This document shows, one piece after another, positions 2,139 to 36,084 of a DNA stretch of 64,000 nucleotides. A program made the translations under genes and the position numbers. Numbering within the stretch: the first letter of the stretch is position 1; each line of letters opens with the position of its first letter. Under the pieces are notes generated by a model that made no database searches, was not told the origin of the DNA, and saw only the letters and a list, made by a program, of their open reading frames with translations. The DNA is from Escherichia phage phAPEC8. Location: sequence record NC_020079.1. One strand, written 5' to 3'.

Positions 2139-2183
2139 TATTAATCTCCTATGTTTAAGAAATGCCCCCGAAGGGGCAGTTTG

Positions 2184-2876
2184 TTAAATAGCGGTTCCTT
2201 CGAAATCCGCCACATTTACGAGATTAATATTTTCAGATTTAGAAGTCAAGTTGTTTTCTGCAACAGATTTTTCTTCAGTATCCGCCTCGTTACCTGCCAC
2301 GTTACGAGGTTCTTCTTCACCGTAGGGATTACCGAATTTCAAAAGATTGATCAATTCTTCTTTGGAGAAGTTTTCTAAATCATCGTCTGTTAATTCAATA
2401 ATCTCGTCTTGTTCTTCAATAAATGTTTCACCACCAGAAAAAGCATCTCGCTTTTTAGCTACTTCCATAGCCTGTTCTGGTGTTGCCCCTGCATCAAGAG
2501 CAGCTAAAGCAAAGTCTGACCCACTTCCTACCGCATAATATTCTTCATCAATCGGATATGCACGTGTTGGGTTGTTACCTTCGTGCAGGAAAATACGTCC
2601 GTCTGGATGAACAACAAGTGCAATAAACTCTTCATCTTCTTTATCTGGATCAGAGTGAATCATCAAACCAGGGACAGCATCACGTGCTGCTTCGCACTGT
2701 AGATTTTGTTCAAACCATTGAAAGAAAGAAAGCACGGAGGTCAGACGACCAGCACCACCTACAAGGTAATCTCCAATTTTTCGGACCTTTTTGAAATTAA
2801 TAGAATCTACACGTCCACCAAAAGTTACCTTACCGTCACTCAAAATCTTATTTTTGGTTGCAATAATTGTCGTCAC
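2184..2876 (-). CDS. HslV-like N-terminal-threonine peptidase (proteasome family) with acidic C-terminal tail
   Basis: N-terminus MTTIIA (Thr right after Met), KVRKI, GGAGRLTS, AVGSGS motifs align with E. coli HslV (TTIVSV, KVRRL, AGGTADAF, AIGSGG). Confidence 0.55.
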   Translation of the reverse strand: MTTIIATKNKILSDGKVTFGGRVDSINFKKVRKIGDYLVGGAGRLTSVLSFFQWFEQNLQCEAARDAVPGLMIHSDPDKEDEEFIALVVHPDGRIFLHEGNNPTRAYPIDEEYYAVGSGSDFALAALDAGATPEQAMEVAKKRDAFSGGETFIEEQDEIIELTDDDLENFSKEELINLLKFGNPYGEEEPRNVAGNEADTEEKSVAENNLTSKSENINLVNVADFEGTAI

Positions 2877-3379
2877 TATTCTTCCTCCTCTGTTAATGTT
2901 TTAAGAACCGCTTTCCCGCCATTCACATATTTGCAGATGTATTCTATCGCACGTAGTGTCTCTTTGTCAACAAAAATTTGATCAGACGTTGCGAGCGGGT
3001 TATTAAGAAGATCACTGCAATCACGAACAAGCAGTGCTTTCTTATTAAACAAATTACTTAAGAACAGTAACTTCGCCTCTTCTTCTGTTATGTGCAGAAG
3101 GCTAGGATCGGAGCCAGCTATTCCTATTATACAATCAAACAAGCTTTCTTTACTATCAGAAAGTTCTTGAAAATGGTTTAAAAGCCAATCTTCTCCTAGA
3201 CACCAACATTTAAACATTTCCAGTTTATCTCGGAGGGTCATATTCTCTAAAGTAAGAGCAATCTCTTTTTCAATATGGTTTACACAAATTTGACGAAATT
3301 CGTTAGGTTTTACGAGTCCCGTTTGATAGCACTCATCTATACCGCTTCTTCCGATAGCTATTGTTGCTACACCCATCAA
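2876..3379 (-). CDS. hypothetical protein (167 aa)
   Basis: ORF track. Confidence 0.4.
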   Translation of the reverse strand: MMGVATIAIGRSGIDECYQTGLVKPNEFRQICVNHIEKEIALTLENMTLRDKLEMFKCWCLGEDWLLNHFQELSDSKESLFDCIIGIAGSDPSLLHITEEEAKLLFLSNLFNKKALLVRDCSDLLNNPLATSDQIFVDKETLRAIEYICKYVNGGKAVLKTLTEEEE

Positions 3380-3411
3380 TCCTCCTTATAAATGGCTTCC
3401 CTGCCATGTTA

Positions 3412-4221
3412 TTAAATAAACACTTCAGTAATCAGTTTAGACAAACGTCCACGTTTATTATCGTCCGTTGTCAGTTCAACGTATCCAATAAAATCTACAA
3501 TTGGCTCACGAACACCTTCTTCATTTTCTGGATATAAAAGTTCCAAAATTTGATGCAGACCATTGCTACGTTTTTTAATTGCATATGTCTGGCGAACATC
3601 GCCTAATACAATAACATGCGTATTAATACCTGCACGTTCAATAAGAAGTTTAAGTGTTTCTGTTGACATAAGTTGTGCTTCGTCAATAATGACGATTGTA
3701 TTATCCAGGGTGGCCCCCAACAAATAGTTAGGAATATTCAATTCGATCTTACCTGATCCAATATCGTTTTCCAATTTGTTGGCTGTCATGAATTGCTGGA
3801 AAATACGTTTTGTAGATTCATAGTGTGCTGCTAGTTTATCTGTTTTATCCCCAGACAAGAAACCAATCTGGTCATCTCCTACTTCAGTAGGGTTCTTGAT
3901 AAAAAGTAGTTTACGGAAGTCTCCTGAACGAAGCATCTGCAAAGCTTTCCATAAAGCAACAGAGGTTTTACCAGTCCCTGCCGGAGCATTTACAACAGTC
4001 AGATCATTCCAGATCATGCTTTGAACAATCTTATTTTGGTCCCCTTCAGGCATAAATTCATCTAAACGGTAATCGTCATTACCTACCGCTTTTGCTGCAT
4101 AACGGCTTTCAATCTTTGCTGAATTAGCCAATTTCTGCCGTTGTGTTTTAGCTGCGGTTTTATTTCCCATAGTAGCACTCCTTTTAGAAGGGGCCGAAGC
4201 CCCTTTATTAGTTGTAAGCAT
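3412..4221 (-). CDS. phoH: PhoH-like ATPase
   Basis: Walker A NAPAGTGKTS and PhoH signature IGFLSGDKTDK. Confidence 0.8.
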   Translation of the reverse strand: MLTTNKGASAPSKRSATMGNKTAAKTQRQKLANSAKIESRYAAKAVGNDDYRLDEFMPEGDQNKIVQSMIWNDLTVVNAPAGTGKTSVALWKALQMLRSGDFRKLLFIKNPTEVGDDQIGFLSGDKTDKLAAHYESTKRIFQQFMTANKLENDIGSGKIELNIPNYLLGATLDNTIVIIDEAQLMSTETLKLLIERAGINTHVIVLGDVRQTYAIKKRSNGLHQILELLYPENEEGVREPIVDFIGYVELTTDDNKRGRLSKLITEVFI

Positions 4222-4708
4222 CTAAAGTTCCAGAAGTCAGAACTTTAATTACTCGTTCAGCACGGTTTGGCGTCTGGCTATACCATTGGCTTTTACGCAT
4301 GTTTTTACCTGCTTGAGTATAATATGCATTGCTGATTAAAGTCAAGCTATTTTGAAACCCTTCAGCACCTTTTAACCCCAACTGGAAAACCATGTTGATT
4401 ATTCCCAATTTACGAGTATCACTAACCTTATCATAGATTGGTGATAAGATAGCACTGTTTTTTATGTCTCTCTTCACTTTTGCAACATCGTCAGCAAAGA
4501 TTTGACGGGCTTCTTTTTCTGTGATAACTCCATTAGTCTTACGACCAAGAAGATTATCTAAGATTTGAATAGCCTTTGCTTTATCTTTTATTTTAGTCAG
4601 AAGGTGTCCTATGCCGACTGTCCAATAACCAAGATGGTCTTGATAAACAGTAAGCTTCAGTCCTTCATCGACTCGTAGCATATCAAACTCATCTACTACT
4701 TTAGCCAT
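4208..4708 (-). CDS. T4 e-type lysozyme (endolysin)
   Basis: Near-collinear with T4 lysozyme: MLRVDEGLKLTVYQD..GYWTVGIGHLL..INMVFQLG..WYSQTPNRAERVI. Confidence 0.85.
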   Translation of the reverse strand: MAKVVDEFDMLRVDEGLKLTVYQDHLGYWTVGIGHLLTKIKDKAKAIQILDNLLGRKTNGVITEKEARQIFADDVAKVKRDIKNSAILSPIYDKVSDTRKLGIINMVFQLGLKGAEGFQNSLTLISNAYYTQAGKNMRKSQWYSQTPNRAERVIKVLTSGTLDAYN

Positions 4709-4715
4709 TTACTTC

Positions 4716-4865
4716 CTATTCGTCGTCTCCTACTCCGTGATCCAACTCGTTAAACAACAGATGTTCTGGAGAAGTTTCACGTTTTGGTTTCGTTTTCTTT
4801 ATGTTGGACTTCAGCTCATTTGCCAAAGCACGAGAAAAGATCTTACGTTTCTGTTTACTTTTCAT
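4716..4865 (-). CDS. small basic hypothetical protein (49 aa)
   Basis: Hand-translated sub-threshold ORF with GGAG RBS; MKSKQKRKIFSRALANELK... Confidence 0.3.
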   Translation of the reverse strand: MKSKQKRKIFSRALANELKSNIKKTKPKRETSPEHLLFNELDHGVGDDE

Positions 4866-4870
4866 AATTG

Positions 4871-5131
4871 TTACTCCGCAATTTGAGCCATGAGATCACG
4901 CAGTTCGGTAAAACCGCCTACGTATGTTACCTCCCCGTTCACTTCAGACAGAATTTGTGGAAATGTGCGTGGAGGAACTCCGGTAAGATCAACAACTGTT
5001 TTAGTCATTGATTCTAAATCATAGTCTTGATCAAGACTTAAATATTCAAACTGTTTATTGCGCATGGTTAATAGTTGTTTTGACATTTCACAAAATTGAC
5101 AGTTAGGTTTACCAAAAATTACAAATTCCAT
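4871..5131 (-). CDS. glutaredoxin-like protein (NrdC/NrdH type)
   Basis: CQFC redox motif near N-terminus, TFPQI and GGF motifs; adjacent to the nrd genes. Confidence 0.65.
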   Translation of the reverse strand: MEFVIFGKPNCQFCEMSKQLLTMRNKQFEYLSLDQDYDLESMTKTVVDLTGVPPRTFPQILSEVNGEVTYVGGFTELRDLMAQIAE

Positions 5132-5973
5132 TACCTCTCCTTATTAAGTAATACTGCTAAAGACTGTTCAATACCTTTATTTAAATCTGATTTTGTAAGA
5201 TAGTGACTGGTTACTAGTTGTGACTTCATCGGACGTGCTGCTGGAGCATTATAGGTTGAAGCTGATACCGCCGATATCTTAACAGGTTCTGGCATCTGTG
5301 TCAAGATCTTTTCCGCAAACTCCGCCCAAGAAATAAGATGGCTTCCTGCAAAATGGTAAGTCTTAACAGACCTTGACCAACCTGTTCTTAATACTTCAAA
5401 AATAGCTTCTGCTAAATCTGGAGCATATGTTGGACAAGAGAACTGATCAGCAACAATAATAAAATCACGTTGTCCATCATTATAGCGAGACAACATGGTT
5501 TTTAGAAAGTTATTTCCAAATTCGCTATATACCGAGGCTGTTCGAATAATATATGCATTTGGGTTAACTCCTCGCACCATTTTTTCACCAAGTTCTTTCG
5601 TATACCCATAATTGTTTATTGGGTTAGGTGTAGTATCTTCAAAAATAGGATGAGAATAATTAAAAATATAGTCTGTAGAAATATGCACAAAATCAATTTT
5701 AAGTTTGCTGCACACTGCCGCAATATTTGCAGGTCCATACGCATTAACAGCCAAAGCAGTAGCAAAATCATGTTCTGCTTTATCTACAGCCGTATAAGCG
5801 GCGCAATTAATAACACCATCTACATAATCTTCAATAATAGCGTTTCGCACAGCTTCAAAATTTGTAATATCTACACGTTCTTTAGGATAAATTAAAGATA
5901 CATTTGAAGGAGCCACTTTACGTAAAGCTTGTCCCAGTTGTCCATTACCGCCCAATACCAGATATGTTAGCAT
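5131..5973 (-). CDS. rmlD: dTDP-4-dehydrorhamnose reductase
   Basis: GGNGQLG Rossmann motif, NCAAYTAVDKAE, STDYIF, YGYTK motifs matching RmlD. Confidence 0.85.
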   Translation of the reverse strand: MLTYLVLGGNGQLGQALRKVAPSNVSLIYPKERVDITNFEAVRNAIIEDYVDGVINCAAYTAVDKAEHDFATALAVNAYGPANIAAVCSKLKIDFVHISTDYIFNYSHPIFEDTTPNPINNYGYTKELGEKMVRGVNPNAYIIRTASVYSEFGNNFLKTMLSRYNDGQRDFIIVADQFSCPTYAPDLAEAIFEVLRTGWSRSVKTYHFAGSHLISWAEFAEKILTQMPEPVKISAVSASTYNAPAARPMKSQLVTSHYLTKSDLNKGIEQSLAVLLNKER

Positions 5974-6533
5974 ACACCCTCGCTACGTAACTGTTGAAAA
6001 GATTTAGCCATTGCATCTTTTGTTGATAGAATAGGTTTAAAACCTTCGTCAAAAATCATATCGAAGCCCCAATCGATCCCTATATCAGGATCATCCCAAC
6101 GTAAACTTTGTTCACTAGAAGGGTCGTATGGAGTTGTGCATTTGTATTCAAAGATAGCATCCATACTCAAAACTATAAAACCATGAGCCAAACCAGGCGG
6201 AAGCCAAAACTGCGTATGGTGTCGTGCACGAAGAACAACACCGTCCCAAGCACCGTAAGTTGGACTATCTTTACGTAAATCTACAGCGAAATCCAATACT
6301 TCCCCACTTACACAACGAACTAGCTTACCTTGCGGGTTATTTGTTTGAAAGTGCATTCCTCGCAAAACACCGAAGTTTGATTTAGACATGTTATCTTGAA
6401 CGAAAGTTTGTCTACCAATAATATCTTCGTATTTTTGTTCATTATATGTTTCTAGAAAGAAACCACGATCATCTTTATAAACGTCTGGTTTGATAATTAC
6501 CGCACCTTCAATTTTTGTTTTTTCTACTTTCAT
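5967..6533 (-). CDS. rmlC: dTDP-4-dehydrorhamnose 3,5-epimerase
   Basis: Start moved to the internal ATG at 6533 ([26 protein letters not shown]..), giving an ATGA overlap with rmlA; the track ORF extends 40 codons further into rmlA. Confidence 0.8.
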
Positions 6534-7408
6534 TTTCTCTCCGCTAATTTGAGTAGGTATTGCCCGTACTCTGTTTTCTTCAGTGAGTTTCCATGATACA
6601 CCAAAGTCTCTAAAGAAATCCACCCTTTTTTGAAAGCAATTTCTTCCAAGCACGCAATCTTCAATCCTTGACAGTTCTCAATAGTCTGCACGAATTGACC
6701 AGCTTCCATCAGACTGGCGTGTGTTCCTGTGTCAAGCCAAGTAAATCCTCGTCCGAGAACTTCCACTTGTAACTTCCTGTCTTCTAGGTAGCTGCGATTG
6801 ATATCAGTGATCTCCAGTTCTCCACGCGCGGAAGGGGTTACTTCTAATGCACGTTGAATAACAGAGTTATCATAGAAATACAAACCTGTGACAGCATAAT
6901 CTGATTTAGGATTTTCAGGTTTCTCTTCAATAGAAATAGCTTGACGATTACTCCCAAATTCAACCACACCGAATCGTTCAGGATCTTTCACCAAATACCC
7001 GAAAATACAAGCTCCGCCCCAAACATCTACCATCTCACTGGCGTTAATCAGTAGTTTACCAAAGCTTTGTCCGAAGAATAGGTTGTCACCTAAAATAAGA
7101 GCAACAGAGTCTTCTCCGATAAAATCTTTACCTATGATGAAAGCTTCCGCAAGACCTCGTGGCTCGGATTGGATTGCGTAAGTGAGTTTTATCCCAAACA
7201 TAGACCCATCTCCGAGAAGATACTCAAAGTCTTCCTGATCACCTGGTGTGGTGATGATTAAAATATCCTTAATGTCAGCCAACATCAATACCGATAAAGG
7301 GTAGTAGATCATGGGTTTGTCATACACAGGGAGCAATTGCTTGCTCACACTGCGTGTTACCGGATGAAGGCGGGTTCCACTTCCTCCCGCCAAAATAATA
7401 CCTTTCAT
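6530..7408 (-). CDS. rmlA: glucose-1-phosphate thymidylyltransferase
   Basis: [19 protein letters not shown]-terminal nucleotidyltransferase signature; 292 aa. Confidence 0.9.
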
Positions 7409-7416
7409 AACCCTCC

Positions 7417-8409
7417 TTAAATTTTCTCACTCCACCATTGAGGGTTGTTTAAGTACCATTCAATCGTTGAGTAGAGATCTTGTTCAAATGTAGAGTTTGC
7501 ACTCCAGCCCAGTTCAGACTCTATCTTAGAAGGATTGATTTCATAACGCAAGTCATGTCCTTTACGATCTTCAACAAAAGTTATCAAGTTGGAAGAAGGG
7601 TAGGTTACTGCTTCTGGATGTACAGTATCCATATAGTCACAAACCATATAGATGATCTCCATATTGGTTTTGGGATTACGTGTTCCAACATTATACGTTT
7701 GACCTGGTTCTCCACCTGTTGCCACTTGAAGAATAGCTCGCGCATGATCCTCAACAAAAAGCCAGTCTCGCACCTGGTCGCCTTTACCATACACCGGAAT
7801 CTCTTTATTCGTCAAGATACTTGTGATGATTTTTGGGATCAGCTTTTCTGGATGTTGATAAGGCCCAAAGTTATTGGAGCAGTTGGTTATCACAACAGGC
7901 AAATCGTAGGTGCGGTGCCAAGCTTTCACAAGATGGTCAGATGCTGCCTTAGACGCACTGTACGGGCTTGAAGGGGCATAAGCTGTCTCTTCGGTAAAGG
8001 GAACGCCAGAGTCTGCCATATCGCCGTACACTTCGTCTGTGGAGACGTGTACGAACATCTTCAGTTTATTTTTTGGGAGGAGCCTTGCAGCTTCCAATAA
8101 ATTGTATGTACCGATAATATTGGAGTCGATGAAAACTCGTGGATTCTTGATAGAATTATCCACATGACTTTCTGCCGCTAAGTGAATGATGAAGTCAGGA
8201 TTGCACTCTACTACTAAACTTTTGACCTGGGTTTCGTTTGCCAAATCTGTCATGCTTAGTTTAACGTGAGTGATATCGCCTACATTCTCAATATCTGCTG
8301 CATAGCCCATCTTATCAACGACAAAAACTTCGTTATTAGGATCTTGACAAAGAGAGCGCACCACGGCACTCCCAATAAAACCAAGACCACCTGTTACCAG
8401 ATAGCGCAT
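7417..8409 (-). CDS. rmlB: dTDP-glucose 4,6-dehydratase
   Basis: [24 protein letters not shown] and YSASK motifs of SDR dehydratases; 330 aa. Confidence 0.9.
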
Positions 8410-34968: not shown

Positions 34969-36084
34969 GTGGCAAATACATATTTAACTAACGTAGACTT
35001 TTCAGGAAAAGCTACGGAAGAGTCACTAGGTGCTCATATTGCTTACACTTTTGATTTTCAAGGTGGAGCGGCATCTGGTTATAATACCCCCCTTTTATTT
35101 AAGTCAGACGGATCTCCAGACATAACTTTTGAAAAGTTAGAAGCTCTCACTAAAATGGGAGAAGATGTTACAGAGTTACGTAAAAGCTATATTCAACAAG
35201 TGATGGATCGCATTTCTGAAAAAGTGCGTGAAAAATTTGAAGCTGGTTGGGATTGGGTTTACGTTATTGATGCTGACTTCGATGCGAACGTTGCAATTTT
35301 CTGTTCAGATAACGGTATGTTCTCTGTTGGCTTTAAAGTTGACGGACTGAATGTTGAAGTTGAAGAGGTTGCTAAACCTGTTGTTCGTGTTACTGATTAT
35401 CAAGTTGTTGATGGTGATGTAATGATCTCCATTGATTTCTTTGAGGACGTTTTAGACGATGCTTTGAGTAATCTCGTTAAGAGTTCCTTGAAACAAAGTC
35501 AAGTTAAAGATTATTTAGTGAAAGCTCACGCTAAAGCTAATACAAACTCTGTGGATGCAGAGGCTAACCCCGCAGGTGATAAATCTGCAAACACAACTGG
35601 AATCAATAAAGGAGAAACCCCTTTGGAAAATATCAACAAAGAAGAATTCCTGAAATCTGCTGAATTCCAAGAACTGATGAAAGCACAGATTGCTGAAGCT
35701 GTAGAAAAAGCAGCAGCAGATGCACGTGCAGCCGCAGAACTTGAAGCACAGGAAAAAATCGCTAAGGCAGAACAGGAAGCAGAAGAACTTCGTAAAGCTG
35801 AACAAGCTCGTATCGAAGAAGAATATACAACTGTTGTTAAATCCTATTCTTTCGTAGAAGAAGACAAAGTTGAAGCTCTCGTTAAATATCTGGTAGACAA
35901 TAAAGATATCGCTGAAACTATCGTCAAAGCATTCGAAAAAGCACGTGCAGAAGTGGACGCAGTTAAGAAAGAATTTGGAACAGAACGTGGTGTTGACGTG
36001 ATCAATACTCAACCTGTAGCTAAATCTTCTTCTGAACTGATTAGTCAGAAAGCTGCTGAACTTAAAAAAGCCCAGAAACAATAA
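34969..36084 (+). CDS. putative scaffolding protein
   Basis: 371 aa; C-terminal half Ala/Glu/Lys-rich and helical (AEAVEKAAADARAAAELEAQEKIAKAEQEAEELRKAEQ); immediately upstream of the decoration and capsid genes. Confidence 0.4.
   Translation: MANTYLTNVDFSGKATEESLGAHIAYTFDFQGGAASGYNTPLLFKSDGSPDITFEKLEALTKMGEDVTELRKSYIQQVMDRISEKVREKFEAGWDWVYVIDADFDANVAIFCSDNGMFSVGFKVDGLNVEVEEVAKPVVRVTDYQVVDGDVMISIDFFEDVLDDALSNLVKSSLKQSQVKDYLVKAHAKANTNSVDAEANPAGDKSANTTGINKGETPLENINKEEFLKSAEFQELMKAQIAEAVEKAAADARAAAELEAQEKIAKAEQEAEELRKAEQARIEEEYTTVVKSYSFVEEDKVEALVKYLVDNKDIAETIVKAFEKARAEVDAVKKEFGTERGVDVINTQPVAKSSSELISQKAAELKKAQKQ

Follow-up and report, generated by a model that had tools for sequence, protein, structure and literature searches.

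In a 64,000-nucleotide stretch of the genome of Escherichia phage phAPEC8 (NC_020079.1), referred to here as the window, a minus-strand gene (GTG start 2874-2876, stop 2184-2186) encodes a protein that is assigned to the proteasome-like N-terminal nucleophile (Ntn) peptidase superfamily (PF00227; MEROPS T1 type) and that is not HslV proper. Phage proteasome homologs have been described as the clusters PPH and RPC (Fuchs et al., 2021, Bioinformatics 37:4694; PMC8665760), and the window protein has a PPH-type core with an RPC-like extension, a likeness drawn from the published descriptions of the two clusters (reference sequences WP_042125023.1 and WP_140207863; CLANS OC.1434257 / OC.1493145). 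This placement follows from a missing helix H2, a missing propeptide, and the bimodal lengths of its relatives. The best explanation, to which we give about an even chance, is that the gene encodes an HslU-independent N-terminal-threonine peptidase of the PPH/RPC type, equipped with a docking or regulatory tail and located in the non-structural arm of the genome. The analysis established the family, the conservation of the catalytic residues, the lack of H2, the conservation of a tail motif, synteny, and the lack of a phage unfoldase.

Several searches carry the family assignment. The motifs MTTIIA, KVRKI, GGAGRLTS, and AVGSGS, from which an earlier note on this DNA had read an HslV-like threonine peptidase, are all present and are aligned by HMMER to solved HslV chains, with T. 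maritima HslV as the best match (1m4y, E=4.9e-9) and the E. coli, H. influenzae, and B. subtilis chains at ~1e-5. BLASTP against MG1655 HslV returned 27% identity over 157 aa (E=2e-9). The profile search against the proteasome family that the earlier note had recommended placed the window peptidase above the gathering score of the Pfam Proteasome model PF00227 (25.6 vs. 22.4 bits), and PHROG 1040, “peptidase HslV family,” was matched end to end (E=1.6e-63 across residues 1-229). By these sequence searches, the proteasome-family match is far beyond chance.

The catalytic residues are conserved as well. The N-terminus reads MTTIIATK; E. coli HslV also opens with MTTIV, and loss of the initiator Met from the window peptidase would expose Thr. 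Its start codon is secure because MTT opens every close homolog and most of the distant ones. In alignment, precursor Thr2, Asp14, and Lys30 correspond to Thr1, Asp17, and Lys33 of E. coli HslV, and precursor Gly40/Gly43 and Gly117-Ser118-Gly119 to its Gly45/48 and Gly123-Ser124-Gly125. Conservation was counted over 151 sequences, most of them standing for clusters at 50% identity: Thr1 was kept in 140 of the 142 sequences aligned there, Asp17 in 146/148, Lys33 in 150/150, and Gly48 in 150/151, while the serine position of the GSG motif was Ser or Thr in 145/151. The catalytic set was invariant or nearly so in alignments of 43-151 homologs. Loss of the catalytic Thr, Lys, or Gly residues had been named in advance as the observation that would speak against the proposal; alignment found them conserved, and membership in the threonine peptidases of the proteasome/HslV (MEROPS T1-type) Ntn superfamily, with catalytic Thr, Asp, Lys, and Gly/Ser intact, stands. 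An AlphaFold2 monomer model, built on 43 homologs, has the alpha-beta-beta-alpha sandwich fold of the superfamily, with core predicted local distance difference test (pLDDT) scores >90 for residues 1-70 and 81-160 and of 82 for residues 71-80.

The description “HslV-like” holds for the superfamily and fails for orthology. The NCBIfam HslV equivalog models NF003964 and TIGR03692 gave 32.2 bits against a cut-off of 137 and 31.4 bits against 157.75, respectively, and alignment to E. coli HslV revealed deletions at HslV residues 7-10, 38-39, 86-87, and 133-141. Structure prediction, also recommended earlier, returned a confident peptidase core in which helices H1 (residues 45-67), H3 (120-128), and H4 (133-143) were recovered and H2 was absent, residues 68-83 forming a loop. 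In 20S proteasomes and HslV, H1 and H2 make up the face that touches the alpha ring or HslU, and H3 and H4 provide the contact between rings. A particle that may still stack its rings, but without the usual cap-docking surface, would fit this model, in which H3 and H4 are kept and H2 is lost. The pocket for the HslU C-terminal tail is formed in E. coli and H. influenzae HslV by Phe54, Phe57, Gln114, the main chain of Ala79, and Lys80, as listed in work on how HslU C-terminal peptides activate HslV (PMC6429459). These positions map to Leu49, Phe52, Pro108, and His74/Ser75 in the window peptidase, so that one of the four listed side-chain positions, Phe57, is retained (Phe54 being replaced by Leu and Gln114 by Pro, with Lys80 falling in the loop); the contacts Ala79 and Lys80 sit in H2, the helix without a counterpart. 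Because H2 and most of the HslU-pocket residues are missing, the peptidase most likely works without host HslU. The coupling to host HslU put forward in the earlier note found no positive evidence, with H2 gone and three of the four pocket side-chain positions changed.

The same note had seen no HslU partner nearby, and this was borne out. The 64-kb window holds no HslU/ClpX-like open reading frame (ORF), PhoH being its sole ORF of 100 aa or more with a canonical Walker A motif, and a tblastn search of E. coli (MG1655) HslU against 50,697 phage records agreed: no Phapecoctavirus or Justusliebigvirus (Stephanstirmvirinae) appeared among the matches listed or in the organism tally. Four records in that tally bore an Escherichia name, and the two of them listed were a jumbo phage of 240 kb and a fragment of 2.5 kb; the matches came from jumbo phages of Erwinia and Salmonella, from phages that carry ClpX, and from some fragments that look like contaminants. 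A 37%-identical two-piece HslU match was seen in Salmonella phage pSal-SNUABM-04 (record H67, 106144..107868), where it is annotated “putative DnaA protein” and “hypothetical protein”; HslV genes are reported as present and HslU as absent in this jumbo phage (PMC7823757).

The C-terminal extension is acidic and added to the core, as had been proposed, but it is longer than the ~50 aa first suggested and not uniformly of low complexity. E. coli HslV aligns to about residue 159, leaving an extension of ~70-75 aa (residues ~156-230), and residues 161-230 hold 18 D/E against 5 K/R. Acidity is a trait of the family, with 87% of tails net negative and a mean charge of −12. In the proximal part, residues ~160-186 (ELTDDDLENFSKEELINLLKFGNPYG) are modeled with a pLDDT of ~90 as two helices (164-169 and 172-181). 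The motif [ST][KRQ][EDKQA][EDQ][LIVMF][LIVMF] was found in 46/78 tailed representatives, compared with 0.7 expected from shuffled tails, at a constant distance past core position 150 (21.3±2.1 residues); this “SKEELL” motif is also visible in the homologs of Vibrio phage VnaP and Aeromonas phage 4L372D (35-36% identity). The distal residues 187-230 have a pLDDT of 48-59, a top-residue frequency below 0.45, and 13-81% gaps. A profile of 41 tail-motif segments found nothing significant among PDB sequences, the best match being an actinobacterial Rieske N-terminus (E=0.096). In the published survey, the C-termini of PPH and RPC homologs are described as facing outward from the presumed rings and as possible interaction sites (PMC8665760).

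Longer relatives carry a middle region and a terminal motif, L..LA..L.I.YAHNIG.EKLR.RI, and the window peptidase ends without that part. Carriers of the terminal motif, which resembles the helix-extended-helix (HeH) folds of the HeH/SAP/Rho_N type, were P0101, P0102, P0111, P0120, P0133, and L004 4001..4834. Pfam searches of ten long-tailed relatives gave only sub-threshold matches to Ish1 (E=0.009) and Rho_N (E=0.02), both in the distal motif of P0120. Because the window peptidase does not have the distal motif and the Pfam matches are sub-threshold, the HeH idea is a lead for the relatives only.

The gene is already known: it is annotated, and its family has been published. Over its first 8 kb, the window is 99.7% identical to Escherichia phage vB_EcoM_ASO2A and at least 99.0% identical to many phAPEC8/ESCO5/tuntematon-like myoviruses (genus Phapecoctavirus, subfamily Stephanstirmvirinae). 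Homologs occur in 232 phage records, from Escherichia, Vibrio, Caulobacter, Aeromonas, Klebsiella, and Rhizobium phages. The RefSeq label of tuntematon gp231 is “peptidase HslV family,” that of phi92 gp058 is “peptidase HslV family / putative 20S proteasome,” and other depositors used “ATP-dependent protease subunit HslV.” Since the databases already hold the same annotation, in RefSeq and GenBank alike, the earlier identification was correct yet not a discovery. An HMMER library search returned 123 cluster representatives at E<=1e-10 and 2,334 at E<=1e-3, the larger number probably taking in bacterial HslV-type proteins too. The top 150 matches were bimodal in length, about half having 130-170 aa and about half extensions to ~340 aa; relatives of 130-160 aa begin MTT-. 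Aeromonas phage 4L372D (L003) has two adjacent PHROG-1040 genes, 3432..3983 (183 aa) and 4001..4885 (294 aa). The 183-aa protein has an MTC start, GCG for GSG, and insertions where the window protein is compact, and the 294-aa protein is the orthologue, with the tail motif as “SKKELI”; the two may form a hetero-oligomeric pair.

The features of the peptidase gene and its surroundings are collected in the table. The TAG stop of the upstream gene X overlaps the GTG start of the peptidase gene by 1 nt, and because of this overlap the two genes may be translationally coupled. X is modeled by AlphaFold2 as mainly helical with a pLDDT of 91.6; its homologs share contigs with peptidase homologs, and X itself aligns with the metagenomic versions at 31-37% identity. 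A search for a recognizable regulator in X gave no Pfam, PADLOC, or PDB fold match, only the PHROG of unknown function. PhoH is a helicase-like P-loop protein and not an AAA+ unfoldase. The order glutaredoxin – lysozyme – PhoH – X – peptidase is kept in phi92, in two metagenomic phages whose peptidases are 48-59% identical, and, with an HNH insertion, in Vibrio phage VnaP. One relative has a 92-aa gene inserted between X and the peptidase gene, and Caulobacter phage CcrColossus carries a 131-aa PPH in an unrelated gene context.

On a larger scale, the tuntematon reference has its structural genes (terminase, portal, head, tail) on one strand and the peptidase gene in the oppositely oriented arm, together with DNA ligase, exonucleases, four dTDP-rhamnose genes, glutaredoxin, lysozyme, PhoH, DNA methyltransferase, and a Ser/Thr phosphatase. 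In the window, 5131..8409 (minus strand) encodes a complete dTDP-L-rhamnose pathway (glucose-1-phosphate thymidylyltransferase, 4,6-dehydratase, 3,5-epimerase, and reductase), which the genes for glutaredoxin, T4-type lysozyme, and PhoH adjoin. A link to defense or anti-defense was also considered and dropped: PADLOC gave no match for the peptidase, X, or the downstream ORF. A separate observation concerns Escherichia phage VEcB (Justusliebigvirus), in which vecB_055 (P0066) joins PhoH residues 1-~113 in frame to a peptidase that begins only at residue ~65. The deletion corresponds to window positions ~2685..3885 (minus strand) and takes out X, the C-terminal half of PhoH, and the catalytic N-terminus of the peptidase; in OZ035773.1, a later record of VEcB, the gene is intact, and the fusion is either an assembly error or a laboratory deletion variant, which would make the block dispensable.

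Signals around the gene were also surveyed. The hairpin after the peptidase gene is GC-rich and followed by a T-rich run, and this terminator-like element may mark the end of the transcription unit. The sigma-70-like site inside X is not claimed as a promoter because the region has no more such sites (12) than shuffling would lead one to expect (11.1). RefSeq marks a “repeat_region” within the peptidase gene; a repeat scan turned up nothing beyond a 15-nt match in two copies and a 13-nt inverted repeat, and chance could account for either.

Table. Coordinates of the peptidase gene, its parts, and neighboring features in the window.
Feature	Position	Strand	Basis or remark
PPH-type peptidase coding sequence, 230 aa	2184..2876	-	ORF; PHROG 1040; Pfam PF00227 above gathering score; 62 phage records at >=99% identity
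Catalytic core, residues 1-155	2412..2876	-	Catalytic residues aligned to HslV; helix H2 absent
Proximal tail, residues 156-186	2319..2411	-	Acidic stretch, then conserved two-helix motif ELTDDDLENFSKEELINLLKFG
Distal tail, residues 187-230	2187..2318	-	Acidic, variable, predicted disordered
Terminator-like hairpin TGCCCCTTCGGGGGCA then TTTCTTAAAC	2163..2178	-	5 nt past peptidase stop; consensus scan only
Shine-Dalgarno GAGGAGG	2884..2890	-	7 nt 5′ of GTG; inside 3′ end of upstream gene X; read from sequence
Sigma-70-like site TTGACA-18-TAGAAT, 11/12 match	2941..2970	-	Inside X, ~65 nt upstream of peptidase start
Gene X, 166 aa, phrog_14834 (function unknown)	2876..3376	-	Coordinates, PHROG match
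PhoH-like P-loop ATPase, first gene of PhoH-X-peptidase block	3412..4221	-	PHROG/PADLOC scans, Walker A, synteny
371-aa gp160-like ORF, next to gp161 equivalent	34969..36084	+	

The function we propose is read from conservation, fold, and analogy, the protein being placed in the phage-borne branch of the HslV/BPH group. Removal of the initiator Met would leave Thr1 as the nucleophile, acting with Asp17 and Lys33, and the backbone at Gly45/48 would form the oxyanion hole, as conservation and fold suggest. By analogy with HslV and BPH, the subunits would form rings that enclose the active sites and that probably self-assemble. Such a particle would be active without host HslU, its substrates being peptides or proteins that are either loosely folded or recruited specifically. 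Both the two-helix “SKEELL” motif and the flexible acidic tail would project from the body, probably as a docking or regulatory element, and X is a possible partner. The position of the gene, last in the PhoH-X-peptidase block and in the orientation of the non-structural arm (DNA metabolism and auxiliary functions), points away from virion maturation and toward a role during infection, in which proteins inside the cell would be remodeled or scavenged.

Several points weigh against this proposal. The loss of H2 argues against HslU docking but may not be decisive, with Phe57 and H1 retained and HslU present in the hosts. Some proteasome homologs may not form stacked rings, as the survey cautions (Fuchs et al., PMC8665760). 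Expression timing is inferred from gene position only. Since VEcB carries an in-frame deletion of the catalytic N-terminus, the peptidase gene may be dispensable in the laboratory. Finally, the literature found on the family consists of annotations and one bioinformatic survey, and the search turned up no enzymatic, structural, or genetic study of any phage HslV or PPH.

Other explanations were weighed against the same evidence. Docking of host HslU (ClpY), by which the phage peptidase would replace or compete with host HslV while the unfoldase feeds it substrates, appears quite unlikely: the HslV equivalog models are missed by >100 bits, H2 is gone with its contacts Ala79 and Lys80, Phe54 and Gln114 are replaced, and the core is shortened by the deletions given above. 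A phage partner could be needed instead, with X, perhaps together with the PhoH ATPase, serving as a cap, adaptor, or inhibitor of the peptidase. This would agree with the stop-start overlap of 1 nt, the occurrence of X homologs on the same contigs as peptidase homologs, an order of PhoH, X, and peptidase kept down to ~48% identity, and a confident model of X whose fold is unmatched; however, the synteny may just mirror the descent of these related phages from a common ancestor, PhoH or X is missing beside the gene in Caulobacter phages and others with a PPH, the 92-aa gene separates X from the peptidase in one relative, and PhoH, as a helicase-like P-loop protein, is no unfoldase. On balance, we regard such a partnership as possible but unlikely. 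A non-degradative Ntn enzyme, such as a connectase-like, sequence-specific ligase/transpeptidase or an amidase, working on a single defined target as a monomer or in a small oligomer, is doubtful and improbable.

The least credible alternatives are a prohead (capsid maturation) protease or a decayed, inactive relic, which together seem highly improbable. Maturation proteases are common in phages, but this gene is not part of the structural module, whose genes run on the other strand, and a better candidate exists. The 159-aa product of tuntematon gp161 (L006 28604..29083) matches phrog_3017, a head-maturation protease (E=3e-12), and its gene is flanked by the portal gene and by one of scaffold size (371 aa); under its RefSeq label “DNA methyltransferase” it is probably a mislabeled prohead protease, as its sequence match suggests. 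Because this ORF by the portal gene matches the head-maturation-protease PHROG, a capsid-maturation role for the window peptidase is unlikely, and it was rejected on gene position and the better candidate. A relic would accord with the one deposited genome in which the N-terminus is deleted, but not with catalytic residues that are almost invariant across distant relatives. The HslU-independent peptidase with a docking or regulatory tail is retained as the best explanation. A bolder extension of it, which we consider rather unlikely, is that the extended PPH of Stephanstirmvirinae and of related Vibrio and Aeromonas phages is the catalytic core of a phage-specific, HslU-independent degradation device, in which the “SKEELL” element, joined in longer relatives by a C-terminal HeH-like motif, would tether the particle to a target or nucleic acid and the co-transcribed X, of unmatched fold, would act as adaptor or gate, for selective destruction of host proteins in takeover or anti-defense.

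Phage proteasome homologs are widespread, and in the literature searched all are biochemically untouched. If active, they would represent a virus-owned compartmental protease inside bacteria, with potential uses in host takeover, amino-acid scavenging, or counter-defense, and would bear on how proteasome-like rings evolved without an unfoldase. The gene studied here is a routine, correctly annotated member, whose label is corrected from an HslV that borrows host HslU to a homolog of the PPH type without the helix for HslU docking; in addition, its tail motif has been defined and X identified as a conserved neighbor.

The comparison with known systems places the window protein as follows. In the passages of the survey that describe them, PPH and RPC share with it carriage by tailed phages or prophage-derived regions, a Met-Thr start without a propeptide, and a compact core with Thr1/Asp17/Lys33/Gly47 in which H1, H3, and H4 are kept and the S12/H5 elements and H2 are missing, the lack of H2 being confined to PPH and RPC (PMC8665760). 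In the same passages, RPC resembles it in having a C-terminal extension with no known structural match but is given for proteobacterial genomes only, whereas the extended form here is clearly phage-borne; PPH differs in length (~140 aa vs. 230 aa), and a “SKEELL” tail motif is mentioned there for neither cluster (PMC8665760). From HslV (ClpQ), a dodecamer of two hexameric rings that HslU activates, the protein differs in the failed equivalog models, the lack of H2, the four deletions, the changes at three of four pocket positions, the absence of an adjacent hslU, and the addition of a 75-aa tail. BPH and Anbu, which have no known ATPase partner, both keep the two apical helices, are larger, are not phage-borne, and do not have this tail, and BPH forms heptameric double rings. 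Connectase, an archaeal proteasome-homolog ligase, is similar in that, according to the survey, it has lost apical helices and has extra C-terminal domains (PMC8665760).
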